From a virus (Duplodnaviria > Heunggongvirae > Uroviricota > Caudoviricetes), in IMG/VR virus record IMGVR_UViG_2700988907_000001: DNA of 64,000 nucleotides. One strand, 5' to 3'. The position numbers were made by a program, and so were the translations under genes. The first letter of the stretch is position 1; every line of letters starts with the position of its first letter. Positions 2,029 to 45,047 of this stretch are shown here, piece by piece. The notes under the pieces were generated by a model, which was not told where the DNA came from, did not search any database, and saw nothing but the letters and a program-made list of their open reading frames with translations.

Positions 2029-2528
2029 CCGATTCACTAGAATTAAACTATGTGAAAAATTATCTCCGTGTTGATTATGACGAAGAACAAGAAGATAAAT
2101 TTATACAAATGTGTATAACTGCTTCACGTTCTTTTGTAGAAACCTATATGAATAGGTCTCTTAGCGATTTCAACGAAGATGGTAGTTATCCAGCTGAAAT
2201 AGATATTGCAAGACTTAACGTTATATCGCAGTGGTATGACACTAGAACTATAATGTCTCCACGTTCAAACGTTAAAGAAATGGAATATGTATTTGCAGGA
2301 TTGCTAGACCCACACAGATATTGGAACTTTGCATTTATTGATGGAATGCAAGAAAGTGGTCTTGGAGATTTATCAAATATCTTTTATGACAAATCAGCTA
2401 ACAGATTCTATAGAGCACAACAAGTTGATACTTATACAGCATTAACTGGAGAAGACAATACTAATGTTCCTAATACAGGATTTTATAAACCTGTAAATGA
2501 AGTTGATTATAATCAAAGGGGGAAATAG
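2025..2528 (+). CDS. Head-tail connector / adaptor protein (gp6-like, Phage_connect_1)
   Basis: N-terminus MTDSLELNYVKNYLRVDYDEEQEDKFIQMCITASRSFVETY matches the 'LELVKxHLRIDxDDEDxLIxxLIxAAxxY' signature of gp6-like head-tail adaptors. Confidence 0.7.
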   Translation: MTDSLELNYVKNYLRVDYDEEQEDKFIQMCITASRSFVETYMNRSLSDFNEDGSYPAEIDIARLNVISQWYDTRTIMSPRSNVKEMEYVFAGLLDPHRYWNFAFIDGMQESGLGDLSNIFYDKSANRFYRAQQVDTYTALTGEDNTNVPNTGFYKPVNEVDYNQRGK

Positions 2529-2531
2529 ATA

Positions 2532-2867
2532 ATGCCTTTGTTAAATGATGCTGGAAAATTAAATCAACGTTGTACTTTTTATTCTATGCAAGAAGTTGAA
2601 ACTATAAGAGGTAACACCAAAACTGTAGAAAAAGAAGAATTTTCTTGTTGGTGTACTATTAGACAAGCTAGAATAAGTGAAGTTCAAGCTGCTATAGGAA
2701 CTGAACATATAAATAGACAAACTCTTATCGTTAGAAGACAGCAAAGAAAAGAGATAAAAAACGATTGGACTGTAAAAGTAAAAGGTCAAATGTTCGATAT
2801 AGTAAGTGTTGTACCAGATTATGAAACAGAAATGCACGACATGATTGTTCTAAAGGAAAAACATTAA
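2532..2867 (+). CDS. Head closure / head-tail joining protein
   Basis: 111 aa; size and position between adaptor and tail completion genes. Translationally coupled (stop TAATG). Confidence 0.45.
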   Translation: MPLLNDAGKLNQRCTFYSMQEVETIRGNTKTVEKEEFSCWCTIRQARISEVQAAIGTEHINRQTLIVRRQQRKEIKNDWTVKVKGQMFDIVSVVPDYETEMHDMIVLKEKH

Positions 2868-3283
2868 TGGCTAAAGATGGAACAATAATAACAATCAAAG
2901 ATTCTGGTATTTCTGATGAGTTAGCGAGATTGGCACGAAATGTACCTAAAGTTAGAAATAAAGCGTTAAGAGAAGGTGCTAAACAGTTTGCCGAAGAAGT
3001 AGAAGCTGTGACACCCGTAGGACCACCACGTTCGTCAAATAAATATGGTGGTAAATGGTATTCTACTGTTCATATGAAAGATGACGTAAAATATCAAAAA
3101 CTACAAGACGAAAGATATATTGTGGGATATGGTAAAGCTACTGGTTGGCGCGCTCATTTTATTAACGATGGTACTATATATATACAACCAACATTCTTTT
3201 TTAATAAAGTGGTAGATGCTAAACTAGGTAACTCATATACAACTATAGAAAATATATTAAGAAGAGAGTTGTTTATGAAATGA
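2867..3283 (+). CDS. Tail completion / neck protein (HK97 gp10-like position)
   Basis: 138 aa; syntenic position. Stop overlaps next start (ATGA). Confidence 0.4.
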   Translation: MAKDGTIITIKDSGISDELARLARNVPKVRNKALREGAKQFAEEVEAVTPVGPPRSSNKYGGKWYSTVHMKDDVKYQKLQDERYIVGYGKATGWRAHFINDGTIYIQPTFFFNKVVDAKLGNSYTTIENILRRELFMK

Positions 3284-3669
3284 TTAGTGTTCAATTATCA
3301 GTAAAATTAAAAAGACTTGTAGCTGAACAAGTAAAAGATATTATACCATCAAAACATGTCTATCTATATAATATTCCAGAAGATGTTGATAGATTAAAAA
3401 CATTACCGTTTGTTCGTATTAATCATATAACTTCGACAGCAACAACACATTCTAGTAACGATATTAATTTCACTAGAGAGCGTTATCAAATTCAATTCTT
3501 CTTTGATGATGAAGATGAAAGAGATATAGAAGGAATGATTATAAAAACAGACAAACAATTAAGACAACATGGTTTTTATTATTCAACGGGATATGATGGG
3601 TATGACCCAGATTTAGAAGGAGTAATAACTGTCACACGACAGTATAATTATAGAAATAAAACAGATTAA
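3280..3669 (+). CDS. Tail terminator / neck protein
   Basis: 129 aa; lies immediately upstream of the major tail protein gene. Confidence 0.35.
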   Translation: MISVQLSVKLKRLVAEQVKDIIPSKHVYLYNIPEDVDRLKTLPFVRINHITSTATTHSSNDINFTRERYQIQFFFDDEDERDIEGMIIKTDKQLRQHGFYYSTGYDGYDPDLEGVITVTRQYNYRNKTD

Positions 3670-3692
3670 AAATATATAGGAGGAAATATAAT

Positions 3693-4361
3693 ATGGCATC
3701 AACAATTGGATTTAAGCGTGCGACTTTCTTTATTTATGATAAAGATGATAAAGTTGAAGACACTTATGTAGTAGAAGGTAAAGCAAATAAAGGTGGTACT
3801 ACAGAGGCTAGTATCTCTGGTTTATCAGCAGAAGCTGTTAAAGTATACGCTTCAAACGTTGCATACTATGTTGCACAACGTGGTACTGGTTCAGTAGAAC
3901 TATCACTATCTATTTTAGATATTACAGATGTATTAGCTGCACGTTTATTAGGACGTACAGAAAACGAAGACGGTATTTATTTAGTAGGAGAAAATACAGA
4001 GCCACCATACGCTGGAGTTCTTATGGAATCAGCAGCACTTGACGGACAACCTATTTTCTTTGCATTGTTAAAAGGTAAATTCCGTTTAGATGAACAAAAC
4101 TTAGCAACAAACGAAGACGAATTATCTGAACCAGAAGCAGACGAATTAGAAGGTCAATTCGTAGCAGATGCTCATGGTAATACTTATGCAACTGCTCGTG
4201 GCGAAGATAAACGAGAAGCATTAAAACAATTATTCTACAATATTGCTGGAGACGGTTCAGAAAACACTAACTCTACTCCATCTGGTCGATTAGTAGATGA
4301 TAGTGAAAAACATGATGAAACTCCAGTAGCAGATTCAGAAGAAACTACTGACACTCCCTAA
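3693..4361 (+). CDS. Major tail protein
   Basis: 222 aa with strong RBS (taggaggaaatataatATG). The N-terminal beta-rich region (MASTIGFKRATFFIYDKDDK...) and acidic C-terminal tail are typical of siphovirus major tail proteins of Staphylococcus and Streptococcus phages. Confidence 0.7.
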   Translation: MASTIGFKRATFFIYDKDDKVEDTYVVEGKANKGGTTEASISGLSAEAVKVYASNVAYYVAQRGTGSVELSLSILDITDVLAARLLGRTENEDGIYLVGENTEPPYAGVLMESAALDGQPIFFALLKGKFRLDEQNLATNEDELSEPEADELEGQFVADAHGNTYATARGEDKREALKQLFYNIAGDGSENTNSTPSGRLVDDSEKHDETPVADSEETTDTP

Positions 4362-4408
4362 GAATGTCTCTGTATCAGCCAGAACAGATTCAGCAATAGT
4401 CGATGCAG

Positions 4409-4434
4409 AGTAATTTTTCAGCCCCTTAATTTGG
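4409..4434 (+). terminator. Stem-loop after major tail gene (agcccc-ttaatt-tggggct)
   Basis: Inverted repeat followed by a T-rich tract. Partial termination after an abundant structural gene is common in phages. Confidence 0.35.
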
Positions 4435-4470
4435 GGCTTATACATATTTAAATAAAGGAGAAGATTATTT

Positions 4471-22429: not shown

Positions 22430-22909
22430 ATGTCAAAAATTAATTGGAAAGTAAGAGCTAAAAAGAAATCATTTTGGGTTGCTATTGTATCAGCAGTCGC
22501 TCTTTTCATTAACAATATTACTGGTGCGTTTGGGTTAGATTATTCAGCGCAAGTTCAAACTGGTGTTGATATTGTTAGTACAATTTTAACATTGTTAGCA
22601 GGTCTTGGTATTGTTACTGATATGACTACTAAAGGAATTGGAGATAGTGAGATTGCGCAAACTTATTCTAAACCACGTAACTCCAAAGACCCAGAGCAAT
22701 ATGTTGATTGGATGAAAAATAACGCAACAGATATTACACCAGAAAGACAAGAAAAAGAAGCAGAGGAATATGATACTAGCAAACCTTTTACTGATGATAG
22801 CGATGAAGTAGAATTTGACGTATCTGATTATGAACATGAAGATATTGGTATTCATGGTAAAAGTGGAATGCACGATGAAAAAATAAACGAAAAAGAAGTA
22901 GATAAGTAG
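22430..22909 (+). CDS. Holin (phi11-type Staphylococcus phage holin)
   Basis: MSKINWKVRAKKK...FGLDYSAQVQ...ILTLLAGLGIVTDMTTKGIGDSEIAQTY...EYDTSKPFTDDSDEVEFDVSDYEH closely parallels the phi11 holin (MDINWKLRFKNK...FGLDLSTQLN...ILTLLTGIGVITDPTSKGVSDSSIAQTY...EYDTSQPFTDASNDVGFDVNEY). Confidence 0.8.
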   Translation: MSKINWKVRAKKKSFWVAIVSAVALFINNITGAFGLDYSAQVQTGVDIVSTILTLLAGLGIVTDMTTKGIGDSEIAQTYSKPRNSKDPEQYVDWMKNNATDITPERQEKEAEEYDTSKPFTDDSDEVEFDVSDYEHEDIGIHGKSGMHDEKINEKEVDK

Positions 22910-22976: not shown

Positions 22977-23501
22977 ATGGCTATTATTAAAACATTTGAC
23001 AAAGAAAAACAACAATGGTTAGAAGTTTTTGCTAGACCAGTTGCAGAAGAAGTGGTTAAAATTATGAAAGATGATTGGTTAGATAACAAAAATACAATCG
23101 ACTATTGGTTATTGCAATATACAGAAGGTGTAGCTGAGCCTATACAAGTCGCTATATTTACTGACGGCAATGAAGTTGATGATACGTTAAAAAGTAATTT
23201 AGAATGGGCTTTTAATGATTATATATCTGGCTTAGAAAATAAGAAATTATTTAATTTACAAGATTTTATAAATGATTGCTATAGTAGAAAGATAGAATTA
23301 CCTAAACAATTCAAAGTTAGTGCTACAGTTCAATTTGATAGTTTAGATTATCCTATTCATTTGCAAGAAATAGATAATATGACTACTAATGTTGATGTAA
23401 TAGGTATGTTAGACGAATCTTCTAAAGGTTCAGTTGAAGTGAAATATATTTACAATGACCACCCTATAGAAGATAAGAAATTAGTAAAAGAAAATAAATA
23501 G
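22977..23501 (+). CDS. Hypothetical protein inserted between holin and endolysin
   Basis: 174 aa with its own RBS (aaaaaggagacagataatttATG). It has no counterpart in the phi11 holin-lysin junction. Confidence 0.4.
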   Translation: MAIIKTFDKEKQQWLEVFARPVAEEVVKIMKDDWLDNKNTIDYWLLQYTEGVAEPIQVAIFTDGNEVDDTLKSNLEWAFNDYISGLENKKLFNLQDFINDCYSRKIELPKQFKVSATVQFDSLDYPIHLQEIDNMTTNVDVIGMLDESSKGSVEVKYIYNDHPIEDKKLVKENK

Positions 23502-23513
23502 GAGAGATGATAT

Positions 23514-23601
23514 ATGGTAGCAAGTTTAACACACAAAGAAGCCGTAGAATATATTAAATCATTAGAAGGAAAATATGTTGACTTTGATGGCTGGTATGGG
23601 T
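23514..23601 (+). CDS. Endolysin exon 1 (CHAP domain N-terminus)
   Basis: RBS ggagagatgatatATG. MVASLTHKEAVEYIKSLEGKYVDFDGWYG parallels the phi11 lysin N-terminus (...GKQFNVDLWYGFQCFD). The exon ends with a U that pairs in P1. Confidence 0.8.
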
Positions 23602-23876
23602 TAATTGGTAGCCCATGTAAAACTTTTTGAATTGCTGGGAACCCCTAACGTAAAGACGAGGGCAATCAGCAGCGAAGCTCACATGGTAACAGTGTGTGAA
23701 CGTTCAACGACTATGTACTATCAATTGATAGGCAGCGGAAAGCACATTTGATATATGTGATGATATAGTCTGGTCTCATATGAAAATATGAGGCTTTCTT
23801 TATGAAAGCTATTAAATGTTATACAATATTATATAGAAATATATAATAGGAAAGGCATTTAATAAAACAAAAAACG
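23602..23876 (+). ncRNA. Group I self-splicing intron (ORF-less, 275 nt) in endolysin gene
   Basis: P1: exon atgggT pairs with intron gcccat (23611-23616), with a G.U pair at the splice site. P10: exon-2 accaat pairs with intron attggt (23604-23609). Four conserved elements are present: P (gaattgctgggaac), Q (caatcagcagcg), R (gttcaacgactatg) and S (gatgatatagtctgg). The intron ends in G. Splicing gives the in-frame junction WYG-Y-QCFDL, which is the canonical CHAP motif. Confidence 0.8.
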
Positions 23877-25240
23877 ACCAATGTTTTGATTTAGCTAACA
23901 AATATTGGAATAAATTATTTGGTGGACAATTAAAAGGTCAAGGCGCAGCTGATATTCCTAATGTTAATGATTTTAGTGGAAAAGCTACTGTTTATCAAAA
24001 TACAACAAGTTTCTTAGCAAAACCAGGAGACATTGTTGTATGGGGTAGAAACTTTGGTCAAGGATATGGTCATGTAGCAGTTGTTGTTGAAGCAACATTA
24101 GATTATATTGTTGTAATTGAGAATAACTGGTTAGGTGGTGGATGGACTAGTGGACCGGCACAAGGTGGTACTGGTTGGGAAAAAGCAACTAGACGACGTC
24201 ACAATTACGAGTTTCCTATGTGGTTCATTAGACCTATTTATAAAGATGATAAGAAAGTCAAATCCTACTCTACCAAAACTACAACTAAAAAACCAGCAGC
24301 TAAAAAGAAAAAAGCTAAAAAATTAAAATATATTAAAGATAATGTAAGAGGATATAAGCTACCCAAACGTAAAAAGAAAACACCAGATTTTATTGTATTA
24401 CACAACGATGCGGGAAGTAAAGGTGCTACTGCAACAGCTTATCGTAATGGATTAGTTAATGCACCATTATCAAGACTTGAAGCAGGTATAGCTGCATCTT
24501 ATATTGACAGAGATACTGTATGGCAAGCATTAGACGAAAATCAGGTTAACTGGCATTGTGCAAACTCATATGCTAATGAACATGGTTATGGGATAGAAAT
24601 ATGTCAGTCAATGGGTGCAGATAACAAAACATTCTTACAAAATGAGCAGGCGGCTTTCCAAGAAGCAGCTAGACTATTAAAAAAGTGGGGACTACCAGCT
24701 AACAGAAATACTGTAAGATTACATTGTGAATTTTATAGCACTAGTTGTCCACATAGAAGTGCTAAACTACACACAGGATTTGACCCTGTTACTCAAGGTT
24801 TATTACCTAAAGACAAACAGTTACAATTAAAAGATTATTTCATTAAACAAATCAGACAATATATGGATGGTAAAATACCTACTGCAACAGTTGTTAAAAG
24901 TACAAGTGCTTCTAGTAACACTGTTAAACCAGTAGCATCTGGTTGGAAACGTAATAATTACGGCACTTATTATAAATCAGAAAATGCAACTTATAGCAAT
25001 GGTAACACACCAATTATCACACGTACAGTAGGACCACTTAGAAGCTGTCCTCAAGCAGGATTGTTACCAGCTGGAGCAACTATTGTATATGATACAGTTT
25101 GTTTACAAGACTATCATGTTTGGGTAAGTTATGTAACTAACAAAGGTTACAGAGTATGGCTACCTATTAGAACATGGAATGGTGTAGCTCCTGGAAACGC
25201 AGGATATGCTGTAGGACCATTATGGGGATATATCAGCTAA
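23877..25240 (+). CDS. Endolysin exon 2 (rest of CHAP, then amidase_2 and SH3b cell-wall-binding domain)
   Basis: The frame is open from 23837 and contiguous to 25240. [10 protein letters not shown]...[26 protein letters not shown]...PMWFIRP (CHAP) is followed by [35 protein letters not shown]...[15 protein letters not shown] (amidase_2/PGRP) and an SH3_5-like C-terminus. Near-colinear with the phi11 endolysin. Spliced product about 483 aa. Confidence 0.85.
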
Positions 25241-25383
25241 AATAAAAACAATAAAAGACAGGTTTTATTCTGTATAAAAGTCGTCAACCATGCGCTTTAT
25301 AAGCGTTTTGTTAGGCGCACCTAAATTTTTTACCCTCTACTTTTTATGTAGGGGGTGTTTACATATTAATGGAGGTTATTATA

Positions 25384-26364
25384 ATGGAAAGAAACAATAT
25401 TTATAGTGAAGAAATATATAAAAAAGTAAATGATGAATCAAAAGAGCTTTTAAATGATTATATATTAGAGTTAAAGGTTCGTAATCGAGCAGAAAAGACA
25501 ATTACACAATATGAATTTGATTGTAAAATGTTTATGTGTTATGTTTATGATAACATGAACAACAAATCATTACTTGATTTAAAACGCCGAGATTTTAGAA
25601 ATTTCTTTTTATTCTTAAAAGAGAGTGGAAAATCAGCAGCAAGAATCAACCGTGTTCAATCTTCAATAAGAAATCTCTTACAGTTTGCCGAAGACGACGA
25701 AGAAATATACGAAGATTATGAAGTTAATCCTATGAGAAAAATTAAATCAGTTGAGAAAGAACCTGTTAGAGAGATTGTGTTCTTAACAGATGAACAAGTT
25801 ACTTATTTAATTGATTATTTATTAGAGAAAGGTAAAACACAAAAAGCATTGTTTGTTAGTTTTGCTTATGATAGTGTAGCTCGTAGAAATGAAATATCAC
25901 AAGTTCAAAAATATAGTTTCCAAGACACAACTAAATCAAGCACTAATGAAGTTGTGGGTAAACGTGGAAAGAAATTTAAGTTAATGTATTCTCAGCGTAC
26001 TAAAGACCTTGCTAAAGAATGGTTAGCTGAACGTGGAGAAGATGATGTTGATAGCTTGTGGATAAGTTATTATAATGGCAAACCACGTGCTATTGTATAT
26101 GACACATTTTATTCTTGGGCTATATCATTTAGAAGTATATTAGAAGAAAAATACGATGTAGATTTACCATTAAATGCTCACTCGTTCCGTCATAGTGGAG
26201 CTGAGAATTATGAAAATGGTACACATAGCTCATTACAATTTATGGGTAAAGATAGCTTAAACATAAACGAACTAAAAATATTAATGAATCATGAAAGTAT
26301 TGATATTACTAATAGTTATTTAAGAAATAAAGACCAAGAAATATTGGAAAATTTATTCTCATAA
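25384..26364 (+). CDS. Tyrosine-type site-specific recombinase / integrase
   Basis: C-terminal catalytic motifs AHSFRHSGA (HxxR) and ...NSYL (Tyr nucleophile), with an N-terminal SAM-like core-binding domain. GGAGG at 25371-25375 favours the ATG at 25384, whereas the ORF track starts at 25369. Confidence 0.7.
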   Translation: MERNNIYSEEIYKKVNDESKELLNDYILELKVRNRAEKTITQYEFDCKMFMCYVYDNMNNKSLLDLKRRDFRNFFLFLKESGKSAARINRVQSSIRNLLQFAEDDEEIYEDYEVNPMRKIKSVEKEPVREIVFLTDEQVTYLIDYLLEKGKTQKALFVSFAYDSVARRNEISQVQKYSFQDTTKSSTNEVVGKRGKKFKLMYSQRTKDLAKEWLAERGEDDVDSLWISYYNGKPRAIVYDTFYSWAISFRSILEEKYDVDLPLNAHSFRHSGAENYENGTHSSLQFMGKDSLNINELKILMNHESIDITNSYLRNKDQEILENLFS

Positions 26365-34185: not shown

Positions 34186-36573
34186 CTATTTTTTATCTAA
34201 AATATAAATATATTCTTTTCCACGTTTTTCGATTTTGATAACTGGTTTTCTATATATCTTGTTACCTTTTACATTAAATGCCTCACCATTCTTATAACCT
34301 AATACAACTAGTTTAGTTCCACGTTCCCACCAACTACCATCATTTTCAAGTTTCTCTTGATAATGAGCATAGTGTCGTCTATTTATTTTTAGTGTAACTA
34401 CACCAGACTCTTTAGTTAAAAGATAAACAAGTCTTTTCATGTTGTTATATCCAACTACTACACCAGTGATAGCACTAATTTTATACTCCTTAAAACCACG
34501 TGAATTAGTTTTTAAGAAAGGTAAGTTCTCTAAATCTTTAAACTCTGAAATATCATGAGTTTTACTTACTTGTTCTGTGTCTATAACAAATTCATCAGAA
34601 TTGAATAATATAGTATCAATTTCCCATTCTGGAATAGTGCCTTGACATTCTTTTACCCAATATTCTTGTCGTTTTTTCTTAGTAAATTCTTTGGCGTATT
34701 GTGGTTTTTTAATTTCTTCTTTTAAAGGTTTTATTTCTTTGTTGTAATATTTCTCAAATGATTTAATATCTATTTCTAGTTTATCTGAGAACTTGTAATC
34801 TACATGTTTAGAATAGTTTTTAATAAATTCTTGCTCTATTTCTTTATTCATTGGTTCTTTATTTCGACCTTTGATTCTACTTCTAAAATCATGCAGCGCC
34901 AATAGTTTATTGTATTTATCTGGTATTATATCCTTATAATAATCTAATTGAGACATTGTTACTTTTTCTTTTTGTGGTATTTCTAGCTTTACTAATTTAG
35001 CCATTATATGGCGTCTATCTAATTCTTCTAATGAATCCATAGCACCAGATTTAATTAATGAAATAGTTTTTTTAGTGCTTGTTAGTTTAGTATCAACCAT
35101 TTTTTCATAATAATCTTTTAATGATTTAAATGGTCTATTTTCAATAATAGCATCTAATGTGTTAGTATCTAAACCAATTATAGGTTTTAATCCATATAAT
35201 ACCTTCCCGTCTTTAGCTATAAATTTCAACTCTGATTTATTAATATCTGGCGTAACAACATCATCAGACATACTATTTACAGCTTTAGATACCTCACCAT
35301 AATCTGTACCTTTTTCTAAATCACCTTCAAGCCCAGACAAAATATTGAGGCAACTTGTTTTCCATGTATCTACACCATAATAATAACAGATATTCATTTC
35401 AATCATTAGTATTAATGTATACGCTACTACATGAGGCAGTGAAAATGCGTAGGAAAATTGAAGTGCAAACTGTTCTTCAAGTATATATCTAGCAAATTCT
35501 TCTCGTTGACCATTTTTTTTCATAATTTTCATAAACTCTTGAGAAGCACTTTCAATCTTTTTCTCATCTTTTTTCCCTACTGATTTTCTAAATTTATTTG
35601 CAAAAGTTAATCCGCCATCGGCTATTTTAGGGTCAATGATAATATTCATCAAGATTTCCTGTGTGTCGCAAATACCAGTTCTTGGCAATAAATGTTTTTC
35701 CATGAGTTCTTGTTCATGTTTAGTTAGTCCATACTTATCCATATCTTGATACCATTCATTAATATCCTGTTTATATCTTACAAACTTATCAATTGGCTGT
35801 TCTCCCTCTGTTTGTAAACGAATAATAGTATTAGTAATAGCTACCTCGTCAAAAGTATTAGGTTTAATTTTTCTCATAGCATTTCTTGCTACTAAACTTG
35901 ACATTTGAAAAGCATCAAATACTTCACCATCTGATAATAATTTAAACATTTGTTTTGAAGTTAAATCTAATACATCTGGGTGTAAATATTTATTATAAGT
36001 TTCTCTTAATGTACCTTGCCATTTTATTTTGCCATTTTCTAACAATAAATCCATTGCTTCTCTAATACGACCTAATGCAGAAATTGAAAGAAAATCTTCC
36101 TTCAACTCCCCTGCAAATATTCCATCATCAGCATTAAATTGAGTGACTTCTAAACCTTTTGTAGTTTTCATCATTGCGTTTACATCTAAAAATGAACGAG
36201 GATAGAAGATAACAGAACTAGCGTGTTGAGAACGACCGCTAGTTAACCCTTCTATAGATAACATAACTTCTTTTAATCCTTCATGCTTCTCTACACGTTC
36301 AATAAATTCTTTAACAGGTTTTCTATCTTTTTTTTCATTTCCAAAAAAACAGTCAGAAACAGACCATAAAGCAGCTCCTTCTGATGGTATTAAGTTGGCT
36401 ATATTGTGTTGTTCAGCAACATCTAATCCATAACCTCTAGTTGCTGTGATAACTGTCGACTTAGGTCCTTCTGTAGTAAAAGTACAGCTATTTAGAATCT
36501 TTTCTGAACCATAACGTTGTTTAGCAAGTTCGATAATTTCTTCACGTTTAGATGCTTCTGTATCAATATCAAT
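34186..36573 (-). CDS. dnaE: DNA polymerase III alpha (DnaE-type) exon 2
   Basis: The frame is open upstream of the ORF-track Met, back to IDIDTEASKREEIIELAKQRYGSEKILNSCTFTT... This is the DnaE 'DIDIDF...ITFGT' region. The downstream GRSQHASSVIF corresponds to the HAAGVVIS palm motif. Confidence 0.75.
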   Translation of the reverse strand: MDIDTEASKREEIIELAKQRYGSEKILNSCTFTTEGPKSTVITATRGYGLDVAEQHNIANLIPSEGAALWSVSDCFFGNEKKDRKPVKEFIERVEKHEGLKEVMLSIEGLTSGRSQHASSVIFYPRSFLDVNAMMKTTKGLEVTQFNADDGIFAGELKEDFLSISALGRIREAMDLLLENGKIKWQGTLRETYNKYLHPDVLDLTSKQMFKLLSDGEVFDAFQMSSLVARNAMRKIKPNTFDEVAITNTIIRLQTEGEQPIDKFVRYKQDINEWYQDMDKYGLTKHEQELMEKHLLPRTGICDTQEILMNIIIDPKIADGGLTFANKFRKSVGKKDEKKIESASQEFMKIMKKNGQREEFARYILEEQFALQFSYAFSLPHVVAYTLILMIEMNICYYYGVDTWKTSCLNILSGLEGDLEKGTDYGEVSKAVNSMSDDVVTPDINKSELKFIAKDGKVLYGLKPIIGLDTNTLDAIIENRPFKSLKDYYEKMVDTKLTSTKKTISLIKSGAMDSLEELDRRHIMAKLVKLEIPQKEKVTMSQLDYYKDIIPDKYNKLLALHDFRSRIKGRNKEPMNKEIEQEFIKNYSKHVDYKFSDKLEIDIKSFEKYYNKEIKPLKEEIKKPQYAKEFTKKKRQEYWVKECQGTIPEWEIDTILFNSDEFVIDTEQVSKTHDISEFKDLENLPFLKTNSRGFKEYKISAITGVVVGYNNMKRLVYLLTKESGVVTLKINRRHYAHYQEKLENDGSWWERGTKLVVLGYKNGEAFNVKGNKIYRKPVIKIEKRGKEYIYILDKK

Positions 36574-36891
36574 CTTATAGCACCCCTAGTTTCCTAGTAT
36601 TTTTAAGGGAATAGACTATTTATTCATTCTATAAAGAATGGGTGTATTTTCGATTTAAAGGGTTTTCACCTACTGTTATTTCAAACAGCCCTACTCCTAT
36701 TGCTAGTATTTATTAATTGCCCTAGCTTATGGATAGTCGTTGAACCTCTACTATAAAAGTAGTTGGCACACCGTTGTCATATGTTAAAAACACTTAGACT
36801 TTCAGTGTTAGCAGATTTGTAATCCACACCTCATTATGAGTTAAACACCTCGTAATCTACAATATTACTATTATAGACGACTATATTATTA
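36574..36891 (-). ncRNA. Group I intron (ORF-less, about 318 nt) in dnaE
   Basis: Exon 1 ends ...RFLSKERQSLPD with a terminal U. The intron begins TAATAA. Its RNA sense contains the R element ggttcaacgactatcc, an S-like aaatagtctatt and a P-like aaatctgctaac, and it ends ...ctataaG. Joining restores SLPD-IDID, the universal DnaE SMPDIDIDF motif. Exact splice sites are +/- a few nt. Confidence 0.65.
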
Positions 36892-38259
36892 ATCAGGCAA
36901 TGACTGTCTTTCTTTACTTAAGAAACGATAATATGGTAAATCATAATCTAATGGATTAAACTGAACAATATCTAACAAATAGTTTGTATAATAGCATGCA
37001 GCTGAACCACGTGCAGGTCCTACTAAACTAACTTTCCACATCATGTCAATAATATCTTGTGTTAACACAAAATAACTTGATAATGGCTGTCCTAATCCTT
37101 CTGATATTTCCCATATTTGCTCTAGCTCAATCTCAATTCTATCTAAATGCTCTTTATTAAATTCTTGATTATGTGACAACATACCTTCTCCAATAAGGTG
37201 CAGATAGTATCTATCCATATCTCTTTCAGAGTGTTTAAATTTATTGATATATTCATAATCATTTAGATAATCTTTGAATAAATTCCTATCTGTATATTCT
37301 GGAATATCAATATTAGGAACCTGTGTTTCTTTTTCGAACTCAATAGGCTCTAATTTATCCATTATCTCATGAGTGTTTCTAATCAGCTCATCTAATAATT
37401 CTTTATCAAAGTATTCTAACAGCTCATCTCTATCCATTACATATGTTGTATTATAAAAACTATCAACCTCTCTATCACCCTGAGAGGCGTTTAAATAGAC
37501 CTTATGAGCAAAGGCTTGGTCTTTGTGTAAATAATGGGCGTCTGTTGTTACGATAGGTTTTAAATCATATACTTTACAAAGTTTTAATAACATATCATTT
37601 ATAATTTGTTGTTCTTGTTTCACATCAGCATTTGATTTATCATGTTTAATTGCTGGTTGTAATTCAAGATAGAAATTATCTTTGCCTACTAGATTAATAA
37701 AGAACATAATAAACTCATGTATTTTCTTTTTATCTTCTTTAGAGTTTGATTTATGATAATCTAAAATATATTGGCTCAATGGCGACCCAGCACATGCCGA
37801 GCTGAAAACAATATCATCTTCATATCCTTTTATCAATTCAGTTAAATCATCATAATACGTCGGAGTTCTTTCCATACCTCTAAAAAAGAAGCTATTTTGC
37901 CACTCTCTAGTTGTTAAACGCTTTAGAAATTCATATCCATTTTGATTCTTGGCTAAAACTAAGAAATGATAAAATTTTGTCTTTTCATTGTTTTCTCTTG
38001 CATGATTAACAGTTTCTCTATCTAACAGATAGAACTCGTCACCATAACCGAGAGTAAAGTCTTTAAATTTATCTGGATTGTTCTTAATGTGCCTATGCGC
38101 CCTTATATGACTACTAATTGTTGCATGGTCTGTGATAGCTATACCCGGTAAACCAAGTTCTAAAGCATAATCTAATAAATCCTCTGGCTTATTGATTGAA
38201 TCTAGGAGACGAAAATTACTCGCATCTGTATGGTTGTGAGTAAGGAAAGGTTCGTTCAA
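36892..38259 (-). CDS. dnaE: DNA polymerase III alpha (DnaE-type) exon 1 (PHP domain)
   Basis: FLTHNHTDASNFRLLDS...GIAITDHATI is the PHP domain. ...GPARGSAACYYTNYLLDIVQFNPLDYDLPYYRFLSKERQSLPD matches GRGSAAGSLVAYxLGITxxDPLxYDLLFERFLNPERVSMPD. Confidence 0.8.
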
Positions 38260-41318: not shown

Positions 41319-42245
41319 TTATTCTCTTAACTCCTTTGTTATTTTAGTATAGTTTCTATTACTTTTAATAAAATATATACCAGACTCACTCATATTATAC
41401 TCTCTTGCTAATTCCTTACATGTTTTATTAGACAAATAAATATGTTTAACATCTTCTTCTGTTAATTTAGATTTTTTATTAACTTCAACTTTACCCTTAT
41501 TCATGTTTTTTGTTATATTTCTGTAAGATTTTCCGTTTTTTATATTACTTACAATAGCTCTATCTATATTATATTTCTCTGATATTTCTTTATTTGATAA
41601 ATCACTTATAAATATATCTTTAACAGTATCTTCTGATAAAAACTTATCATTTTTATAATTACCTTTTATTAAATTTTTAGTTACATGAGTCCATGTATTG
41701 TCTCCACGTATATTAGAAATAGTATGTTTGGAAACATTATATTTTTTTGACATGTGTATTCTACTTTTATTGCTTGTGTAAATATCTATTACTTGTTTAT
41801 CATTAAGTATAGCAATACTTTGTTTTTCTCCTTTTTTATCTGCAACCAATCCATTGTTTACGGCATGTTCTCTATTTTCTTGATTGGTACACCACTCTAA
41901 ATTTTCTACTTTGTTATTTTCTTTATTACCATCAATGTGATTTACTTGGTTCTTTATTTTTGGATTGTTGTTGTATATAAAAGTTTCAGCCACTATTCTA
42001 TGTACCGCTTTTGTTTTTAGTTTGTATTCATTATTATCTTTTTTATAGTACATAGAAACTATAGGGTATCCTTTGTGATTTCTTCCTTGTTTGTAAATAT
42101 TTAATTGTTTACCTAAAATTTCTCCTTTTTTATTAACCCAATAACCTGGATAATCTTTTATATTAGACCATAATTCACCGTTAATTTGTTTAAATATTTG
42201 TCTATAATTAATTTCGTTAATCATTAAAATCAACCTTAATTTCAT
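41319..42245 (-). CDS. Free-standing HNH homing endonuclease with NUMOD-like C-terminal repeats
   Basis: AVHRIVAETFIYNNNPKIKNQVNHIDGNKENNKVENLEWCTNQEN is the HNH_3 core. It is followed by three IxxIxxx...Y..IT helix-turn-helix-like repeats. Confidence 0.7.
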   Translation of the reverse strand: MKLRLILMINEINYRQIFKQINGELWSNIKDYPGYWVNKKGEILGKQLNIYKQGRNHKGYPIVSMYYKKDNNEYKLKTKAVHRIVAETFIYNNNPKIKNQVNHIDGNKENNKVENLEWCTNQENREHAVNNGLVADKKGEKQSIAILNDKQVIDIYTSNKSRIHMSKKYNVSKHTISNIRGDNTWTHVTKNLIKGNYKNDKFLSEDTVKDIFISDLSNKEISEKYNIDRAIVSNIKNGKSYRNITKNMNKGKVEVNKKSKLTEEDVKHIYLSNKTCKELAREYNMSESGIYFIKSNRNYTKITKELRE

Positions 42246-44252: not shown

Positions 44253-45047
44253 TCAACACTTTTTTATCTCCATTTTTAAACTTCCATATCTTCCTATATT
44301 TTTTAATGGTAAACCCATTTTTATAAATCGTTTTTTTATAGTAAATGTCGATATTCCTGTTTCCATAGCTATAACTCTTAAACTTTGATTTTTATTTACA
44401 TAATTATATAACCATTTATAGTAATAAAAACTATCTGGTATTTGTTTTATTTTATCATTATTAATTTGAGTGTATGATTTTCCTTTTACTAAATTTTCTG
44501 TTATATCTTTATAAGTTCTATCATGTCTTATATCATAGTGTGTGGTGTTAGTCAAAGAAGGATACTTTTCTTTTAATTCTTCTCTTGTTAATCTTGATGT
44601 ATATATGTCTATAACTTCGTCTTTAGTAAATAATCTACTGTTTTCTTTTTTGCTTTTATAATTTTTTACTCCTAAGGAGTGGTGGGTATTTTCATAAGAA
44701 TATACCCACTCTATATTTTTTATTCGGTTGTCGTTTCTTTTGCTATTTTTATGATTTATACAATTTCTATCATCTTTTTTGAGTAACATCATTTCTGCTA
44801 TAGCTCTATGATAAAATATTTTTCCTTGATTATGTTTTTCCTTTTGTATATTATTATAATAATACCCTTCTTTTACTTGTGTTGTTAATATTTTTTTGTA
44901 TATGTTAGAGTATAATTTATTACCTTCTATATTTATATAATATCTTCCTCTTGTGCTATATACAGGGATAAAAATATAACCATCAATACTTTTTATATTT
45001 ATTGGCATAATTTGATTTTTTAATTCCATATTTATCTTCCTTACCAT
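44253..45047 (-). CDS. Free-standing HNH homing endonuclease (second copy) with NUMOD-like repeats
   Basis: ...IFYHRAIAEMMLLKKDDRNCINHKNSKRNDNRIKNIEWVYSYEN is an HNH_3 core. Repeated ...Y..IT.. modules follow. Confidence 0.6.
   Translation of the reverse strand: MVRKINMELKNQIMPINIKSIDGYIFIPVYSTRGRYYINIEGNKLYSNIYKKILTTQVKEGYYYNNIQKEKHNQGKIFYHRAIAEMMLLKKDDRNCINHKNSKRNDNRIKNIEWVYSYENTHHSLGVKNYKSKKENSRLFTKDEVIDIYTSRLTREELKEKYPSLTNTTHYDIRHDRTYKDITENLVKGKSYTQINNDKIKQIPDSFYYYKWLYNYVNKNQSLRVIAMETGISTFTIKKRFIKMGLPLKNIGRYGSLKMEIKKC

Follow-up and report, generated by a model that had tools for sequence, protein, structure and literature searches.

The question raised by this locus is how a phage can make a complete endolysin from a gene whose two parts lie in different reading frames. 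The DNA analysed here is a stretch of 64,000 nucleotides (nt) from IMG/VR record IMGVR_UViG_2700988907_000001 (hereafter the window, 64 kb of a 92-kb genome), which between positions 23400 and 25300 is 100% identical to Staphylococcus phage vB_SepS_SEP9 (SEP9; KF929199 / NC_023582; record coordinate = window coordinate + 10213), a lytic siphovirus of the genus Sextaecvirus that infects S. epidermidis. The endolysin locus is found within the lysis module, 3' of the holin gene (22430-22909) and 5' of a tyrosine recombinase gene. From ATG 23514 its first part reads MVASLTHKEAVEYIKSLEGKYVDFDGWYG and then continues to TGA 23628-23630, the last residues before this stop being ...VDFDGWYGLIGSPCKTF; the lysin frame of the second part, which differs from the first, is open from just before 23877. 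An earlier note made from the DNA letters had attributed this break to a 275-nt group I intron at 23602-23876 that ends in G and lacks an open reading frame (ORF), and had specified its P1 and P10 pairings, four conserved core elements and a splice at 23601/23877 restoring the motif around the catalytic cysteine of the CHAP domain. These particulars, coordinates included, were borne out: an Rfam covariance model, covariation among relatives, a gapless CHAP alignment and a natural intron-less allele all agree, and the SEP9 endolysin gene is very probably interrupted by an active self-splicing group I intron with these boundaries.

Joining the exons at 23601/23877 gives a protein of 483 amino acids, in which Pfam identifies CHAP (residues 28-113), Amidase_2 (196-322) and SH3_5 (394-460) domains, all above cut-offs. 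The ligated mRNA is predicted to read ...TGG TAT GGG T/AC CAA TGT... (here and below, a slash within a sequence marks the insertion point), with the codon of the catalytic Cys32 (TGT 23882-23884) 6 nt into exon 2, and the junction expected in spliced RNA is TGGTATGGGT/ACCAATGTTTT. The N-terminal 119 residues of this product are 63-66% identical to lysins of the S. aureus siphoviruses phiMR25, 52A and 29, and exon 1 shares 93% amino-acid identity with exon 1 of phages 6ec, CF1 and CF9. The label "phi11-type", which the earlier note gave to this lysin, is appropriate for the CHAP, Amidase_2, SH3_5 domain architecture and holds at that level only.

The predicted splice sites are fixed by three arguments, of which the strongest is provided by S-CoN_Ph10, a phage of the same genus. 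Its natural intron-less allele is collinear with the spliced SEP9 sequence, with no gap and 96.8% identity over 312 nt, and no 3' end other than G23876 combines a restored reading frame with collinearity to this allele. Secondly, the junction aligns gaplessly to the solved CHAP domain of LytN (DFDGWYGYQCFD against DFDGSFGWQCFD, within the LytN stretch DFDGSFGWQCFDLVNVYW; E = 1.6e-35), and the spliced protein matches the uninterrupted lysin of phage SA2 (FDGWFGFQCFD; supplement of PMC6507118). Thirdly, P1 and P10 track the exons on which they act: P1 is ATGGGT/GCCCAT and P10 is ATTGGT/ACCAAT in SEP9, compared with ATGGAT/GTCCAT and ATTGAT/ATCAAT in phage Sazerac, while the P10 guide of phage PMBT8 fits its own, different exon 2 (ATAACG) in an Amidase_3 gene. 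An alternative 3' site at G23855 is also in frame; it would add seven residues (SFNKTKND) within the CHAP motif, offers no P10 and is excluded by the S-CoN_Ph10 allele.

Assignment of the insert to group I is based on its RF00028 score, the U.G pair in P1, the terminal G, P10, and a P3-P9 core with a P3/P7 pseudoknot, all of which were found. The RF00028 match (23592-23792) reaches 91.5 bits, well above the gathering score of 50 (E = 3.6e-22), covers the model in full (positions 1-253), and is the sole intron match in the window, both at the gathering threshold and in a whole-window search at E <= 0.1. It stops at P9, leaving the last 84 nt of the intron outside the model. The P, Q, R and S elements were located at 23630, 23664, 23702 and 23762 and match the Rfam consensus; P, R and S occur once each in the window and Q three times. 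The guanosine-binding site would be expected within the R and S elements at P7. Judged by sequence, P7, J8/7 and J4/5 look intact. No P2 is present in the SEP9 structure, and of the features of subgroup IA there is one hairpin, P7.1 (23718-23731, three covarying pairs), with no second hairpin; on the basis of P7.1, the intron may be IA-like.

An unconstrained fold of the whole intron recovered most helices and paired the P7 strands too, with a minimum free energy (MFE) z-score of -5.0. The part beyond the model, which comprises P9.1, P9.2 and P9.2a (23793-23876), folds at -21.8 kcal/mol (z = -6.7 to -6.9; 0 of 200 shuffles were as good) and includes 15 of the pairs in which both partners vary among relatives. 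This AT-rich tail is thus part of the ribozyme and not filler, given its stable fold and covarying pairs. An origin as the scar of a deleted endonuclease gene was considered for the tail (20% GC) and rejected, as it folds at z = -6.9 and covaries, and the variable slot of this intron family is P8. The SEP9 P8, folded alone, is marginally better than shuffles (z = -1.6). Two terminator-like matches (23594-23618 and 23772-23795) are actually the P1 and P9 hairpins.

Covariation was examined in an alignment of seven copies of the intron (SEP9, CF1, S-CoN_Ph17, 6ec, CF9, PMBT8 and Sazerac, the last with the interior of its P8 loop removed), which span three phage lineages, Sextaecvirus, PMBT8 and Sazerac. 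Pairing was counted on an explicit structure with 13 helices and 78 pairs, which gives 546 cells (Table 1); P8 was excluded because its four versions differ in length and register, and each of these was folded separately. Standard pairs occupy 98.4% of the cells, compared with 34-46% when the 3' partners were slid by one to three columns, and both partners have changed in 31 of the 78 pairs, compared with zero to six in the slid controls; none of 500 shuffles reached the observed values. The effect is large, and the signal is distributed across ten helices. In P1 all cells are paired (42/42), with one compensatory change from G-C to A-U in Sazerac, where exon and guide bases change together. 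Two of the six P10 pairs change on both sides, and the two unpaired cells of this helix represent a 1-nt register shift in PMBT8.

Table 1. Positions in the window of the predicted intron, its structural elements and the endolysin exons of SEP9 ("double changes" are pairs that change on both sides among the seven aligned copies)
Feature	Position	Strand	Remarks
Shine-Dalgarno AGGAG	23500..23504	+	9 nt before lysin ATG 23514; read from sequence
Endolysin exon 1	23514..23601	+	29 codons and first base of codon 30; ends ...FDGWYG + T
Group I intron (predicted), no endonuclease ORF	23602..23876	+	275 nt; RF00028, covariation, MFE, intron-less allele
P1	23596..23616	+	exon ATGGGT 23596-23601 with guide GCCCAT 23611-23616; U.G 23601/23611 at 5' splice site
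P10 guide ATTGGT	23604..23609	+	pairs with exon-2 ACCAAT 23877-23882
P3	23623-23629 / 23736-23742	+	encloses P4, P5, P6, P6a, P7.1; 3 double changes
Read-through stop TGA	23628..23630	+	27 nt inside intron, within P3 5' strand
P4	23633-23638 / 23666-23671	+	invariant in seven copies
P5	23643-23646 / 23659-23662	+	invariant in seven copies
P6	23672-23673 / 23702-23703	+	2 bp
P6a	23678-23683 / 23693-23698	+	5 double changes
P7	GACUA 23709-23713 / UAGUC 23766-23770	+	pseudoknot with P3; within R and S elements; invariant in seven copies
P7.1	23718-23722 / 23727-23731	+	3 double changes
P8	23743..23759	+	minimal 17-nt hairpin; variable slot of intron family
P9	23775-23781 / 23786-23792	+	GAAA loop; 2 double changes
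P9.1	23793-23798 / 23804-23809	+	4 double changes
P9.2	23810-23818 / 23856-23864	+	5 double changes
P9.2a	23827-23835 / 23840-23848	+	GAAA loop; 6 double changes
Terminal guanosine (omega-G)	23876	+	last intron base; read from sequence
Endolysin exon 2 (with stop codon)	23877..25240	+	rest of CHAP, Amidase_2, SH3_5; Pfam, PDB alignment, translation

Several points weigh against an active intron. Five of the seven aligned copies (those of Sextaecvirus) are near-identical, so that the covariation rests mostly on PMBT8 and Sazerac, and the structure was drawn on SEP9 itself and is therefore favoured over the slid controls. The five Sextaecvirus copies have a U-U mismatch in P6a, and a ribozyme without P2 and with a P6 of 2 bp is unusually compact and might need help in folding. 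The Rfam gathering search did not report the S-CoN_Ph17 copy, which is 95% identical to that of SEP9, and the support for splicing in SEP9 and all Sextaecvirus copies comes from sequence, not RNA. We infer that the intron splices in vivo and does so efficiently.

Group I introns splice by two transesterifications, the first of which is started by an external guanosine (reviewed in PMC3984707), and this chemistry is assigned to the SEP9 intron on account of its family membership. One pre-mRNA would be transcribed across both exons and the intron, and the ribozyme core from P3 to P9, the P3/P7 pseudoknot included, would fold. An external guanosine would attack the phosphodiester after U23601, in the U.G wobble of P1; the internal guide would then position exon 2 through P10, and the free 3' OH of exon 1 would attack after G23876, leading to ligation of the exons. 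On unspliced RNA the TGA located 27 nt into the intron halts ribosomes, and thus only spliced RNA would yield a complete CHAP active site.

It had also been proposed in the earlier note that the timing of lysis would depend on ribozyme activity. This holds only trivially, in that no full-length enzyme can be made without splicing; there is no indication of regulation, and anything beyond this is speculation. We consider it quite unlikely that splicing, in addition to occurring, is conditional or slow and acts as a timer or switch of lysis. The host gene is a lysis gene, where timing matters, its full-length, Cys-containing product can be obtained from spliced RNA only, and the intron has been kept without an endonuclease and is conserved above its flanks (98.5% identity between SEP9 and CF1, against 91-94% for the exons on either side and the DNA upstream). 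Such conservation would fit either constraint or recent spread, however, and recent horizontal spread explains it equally well. No sensor or regulatory element is indicated in the sequence, and close relatives lack the intron (S-CoN_Ph10, and the SA2 lysin; PMC6507118), which shows it to be dispensable for the lysis programme. Reviews also view such introns as largely neutral selfish elements (PMC3984707).

The deposited annotation of SEP9 describes the locus differently. In GenBank, exon 1 with its read-through forms a hypothetical protein of 38 amino acids (SEP9_028), and the "endolysin" (SEP9_029; AHG23952.1, YP_009007699.1, UniRef W5RV91) is a protein of 428 amino acids that starts at ATT 23954 (residue 56), past the catalytic Cys, and has no ribosome-binding site. 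Likewise, in the manually curated endolysin table of Oliveira et al. 2019 the SEP9 entry is "Single gene" with 428 amino acids (MPNVNDF...), and 6ec is spliced only across an HNH insertion (PMC6507118). Taken at face value, these entries would mean that the intron is a dead, non-splicing relic and that the phage makes the 38-amino-acid peptide together with a truncated lysin (from 23954 or ATG 24218), which lyses through its amidase and SH3b parts with the CHAP domain inactive. This is not contradicted by RNA evidence, and an internal start has been reported for the lysin of staphylococcal phage 2638A (PMC6507118). In SEP9, however, neither the annotated ATT nor ATG 24218, the only in-frame ATG, GTG or TTG in early exon 2, is preceded by a Shine-Dalgarno sequence, and the product would keep most of the CHAP domain while lacking its catalytic Cys32. 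Moreover, a relic would not retain 98.4% pairing, 31 double-changed pairs or a conservation above that of its own exons, and in three lineages exon 1 has remained an open, conserved frame, with amino-acid identity as low as 41%. We therefore regard a dead relic as very unlikely. It is virtually impossible that the 275 nt stem from an assembly or sequencing error, or serve as an element for translational bypass or frameshifting. Nothing more than the difference between the two frames speaks for this; the insert recurs in about 29 phage genomes sequenced independently and on many metagenomic contigs, scores as a group I ribozyme (RF00028) and, at 275 nt with a stop 27 nt in, goes far beyond known bypass.

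With an active self-splicing intron as the preferred reading, the annotation problem extends beyond SEP9. A collection of about 15 billion proteins does not contain the exact 483-residue sequence. NCBI and UniRef do contain the 428- and 38-residue products, and the read-through peptide, in its various versions, turns up on more than 170 contigs (172 for the commonest version). In no inspected record of a sister phage is the intron annotated; exon 1, where annotated, is a hypothetical protein. Cloning the deposited SEP9 endolysin as an anti-staphylococcal enzyme would give a CHAP domain without its catalytic Cys. Surveys that detect lysin introns by an embedded endonuclease gene, which is how a putative intron is defined in a 2025 preprint (bioRxiv 10.1101/2025.02.06.636829), systematically miss introns without an ORF.

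The intron is polymorphic within the group, being absent from S-CoN_Ph10 and located exactly as in SEP9 in about 29 records of related phages. Sister Sextaecvirus phages (6ec, CF1, CF9, the S-CoN_Ph series and the PG-2021 series) carry it with 86-98.5% identity, and its P8 measures 17 nt in SEP9 and CF1, 26 nt in S-CoN_Ph17, 59 nt in 6ec, CF9 and PG46, and 68 nt in PMBT8. Unlike the 17-nt P8 of SEP9, the 59-nt versions contain a perfect sigma-70 promoter consensus. In 6ec (L002 1847-1875; coordinates with an L prefix are those of the relatives' loci) this element matches 12 of 12 consensus positions and has an extended -10 TG, with no gene downstream inside P8. It looks like an orphan promoter left behind after loss of an endonuclease gene.

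An occupied form of the same slot is found in Sazerac (ON550478), an unrelated 46-kb phage in which the same codon of a distant lysin (41-57% identical) is interrupted, between the G and the [Y/.]QC of the motif. The Sazerac intron is 1005 nt long, compared with 275 nt in SEP9, and has a homologous ribozyme (first 115 nt 84% identical) with the same P9-P9.2 architecture. Its P8 has a perfect 12-bp stem, and the loop holds an 11/12 sigma-70 promoter with TG (L008 2647-2674) about 30 nt before an ORF for an HNH endonuclease of 227 amino acids; this was identified by PHROGs (phrog_374, E = 3.6e-69), a Pfam search of the ORF giving no match. Lacachita, a close relative of Sazerac, has been reported with one group I intron (PMC10286716). 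A related intron with a phrog_374 gene was also seen at nearly the same position in the CHAP gene of the Silviavirus myovirus CIFT_MFB_MRSA21, where the 5' splice site, judged by eye, is 2 nt downstream.

PMBT8, a phage of S. hyicus, has the closest ribozyme outside the family at the SEP9 site (82% identical; RF00028, 101 bits), with which every counted helix is shared. This lysin intron (L007 2465-2791) occupies a different site, the Amidase_3 motif GHG/YNDPG, and its P10 is re-tuned accordingly; it may be a copy of the intron that moved to a new site. The end of its exon 1 (CATGGGT) is nearly the same as that of SEP9. By eye, PMBT8 has TTGACA-15 nt-TATAAT, which was missed by a scanner requiring a spacer of 16-18 nt.

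The Rfam gathering search also failed to report the ORF-containing copies. As for S-CoN_Ph17, its intron (L005 1201-1484) differs from that of SEP9 mainly in P8, and the record lists 268 features in 88 kb and has stops inside the lysin, which suggests that it is rich in indels.

Within SEP9, the slot that holds the HNH gene in relatives is the 17-nt P8 hairpin, in keeping with the description of the intron as ORF-less. No homing endonuclease is encoded in it: apart from the exon-1 read-through, the only ORF of at least 30 amino acids on the intron strand is a TTG frame of 48 amino acids (23605-23751) running across the ribozyme core, and the only promoter-like match found in a scan of the intron (10/12, 23820-23847) lies within the conserved P9.2 and has no usable start codon after it. 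The two free-standing HNH genes of SEP9 (41319-42224 and 44253-45029, minus strand) belong to phrog_59/959 and show no similarity to the endonuclease of the Sazerac intron (E = 0.12 and 0.42); since they represent other families, a homing partner acting in trans is unsupported within the window. At one site, P8 forms a series: promoter and HNH gene in Sazerac, promoter only in 6ec, 26 nt in S-CoN_Ph17 and the 17-nt hairpin in SEP9. The simplest reading is that several staphylococcal phage lineages have been invaded at the CHAP catalytic-Cys motif by one mobile intron family, of which SEP9 carries the most reduced, endonuclease-free version. With regard to the direction of change, we infer loss of an endonuclease gene that was once there. 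SEP9 would then illustrate clearly how an endonuclease decays in a single intron family, and the P8 series together with the intron-less allele offers a ready system for the gain-decay-loss cycle of homing elements.

The intron-less allele has a peculiarity of its own. In S-CoN_Ph10 (L009 2685-2692), four of the ten differences from spliced SEP9 over the 312 nt fall on the bases immediately either side of the insertion site (GGAA/TG, compared with GGGT/AC in SEP9, 23598-23601 and 23877-23880), and Met replaces Tyr30. This recoding could mean that the exon bases of intron carriers are co-adapted to P1 and P10, or that the recoded site resists a homing endonuclease.

It is unlikely that the endonuclease-less intron is retained for a benefit, namely that an occupied site is uncuttable and would confer immunity against superinfecting phrog_374 HNH homing elements. 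The intron splits the DNA for the CHAP catalytic motif, which would be the target of the phrog_374 enzymes that related introns carry in co-infecting staphylococcal phages (the Sazerac/Lacachita group and Silviavirus), and the 4-nt junction recoding of S-CoN_Ph10 would be an alternative escape route. A weaker variant of this idea, in which the rate of splicing tunes lysis timing, is speculation.

The lysin gene of Sextaecvirus is an intron hot spot. Sister phages have one or two more insertions in the amidase half of the gene (L002 2523-3491; L004 about 2523-3462 and 3664-4467; L006 2122-2393), and SEP9 is uninterrupted at the homologous sites near 24377-24392, 24491 and 24560. The extra insertions of 6ec and CF9 encode NUMOD4/HNH_3 and HNH_3/NUMOD1 endonucleases, and PG-2021_46 has a second group I intron scored by Rfam (77 bits) after ...RLEAGIA. 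Elsewhere in the window, a stretch on the minus strand (36591-36882), between ORFs 36889-38259 and 34186-36264, reached 31 bits (gathering 50; E = 6.6e-6), and did so only in a search of 851 nt on its own. The DNA polymerase of SEP9 is deposited as a two-piece join, and label 049 is missing.

Group I introns of staphylococcal phage genes are reportedly treated in a 2013 review by Lavigne and Vandersteegen. The SEP9 intron belongs to the same ribozyme class as those of T4 td, nrdB and sunY, Twort orf142 and nrdE, and the SPO1 and Bastille DNA polymerase genes, with which it shares a stop soon after the 5' splice site; segments of its core are 75-88% identical to Bacillus phage DNA polymerase introns. 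It differs from these models in its host gene and in lacking P2 and an ORF. In phages K, 85, G1 and others, a group I intron interrupts a CHAP/Amidase/SH3b lysin gene, as in SEP9, and the gene has been annotated in pieces as a result. Oliveira et al. 2019 recorded such introns in endolysin genes of 20 of 205 staphylococcal phages (PMC6507118), and the phage K endolysin intron is cited as correctly annotated (bioRxiv 10.1101/2025.02.06.636829). Most recognised lysin introns have been found through the endonuclease that they encode, whereas the SEP9 intron has no ORF; the insertions described in that preprint sit between domains, whereas that of SEP9 splits the CHAP catalytic motif, 29 codons into the gene. 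By description, a comparable ORF-less candidate is known from the staphylococcal siphovirus DW2 (PMC4124061), in which a 349-bp insertion without an endonuclease splits a CHAP-domain gene about 35 residues from the N-terminus and was recognised through an uninterrupted homologue; the DW2 gene, however, encodes a virion-associated (tail) hydrolase and not an endolysin. A literature search, which did not extend to the original SEP9 paper, returned no description of an intron in the lysin of SEP9 or Sextaecvirus. The SEP9 intron is a previously unannotated case of a well-documented intron type: its value lies mainly in the correction of the annotation, and it leaves the known workings of group I introns unchanged.

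Some minor observations concern the surroundings of the gene. The tyrosine recombinase gene (25369-26364) adjoins the 3' end of the endolysin gene, although SEP9 is described as strictly lytic; this proximity has been remarked on previously (PMC6507118). The G+C content of SEP9 has been quoted as 45.8% and discussed as unusually high (PMC6507118). That of the window is 30.2%, and the quoted value cannot be right, because the remaining 28 kb would need a G+C content of about 80%. Finally, the Rfam family RF02897 ("Staphylococcus sRNA 808", a small RNA) matches positions 24796-25050, wholly inside the lysin coding sequence, from the end of Amidase_2 through the linker to the start of SH3_5. It also matches the loci of relatives (L002 3896-4150, L003 3856-4110, L004 4788-5042 and L009 4563-4817), the scores at the five loci ranging from 189 to 212 bits, and the family looks to have been derived from part of a phage or prophage lysin mRNA and not from an independent small RNA gene.

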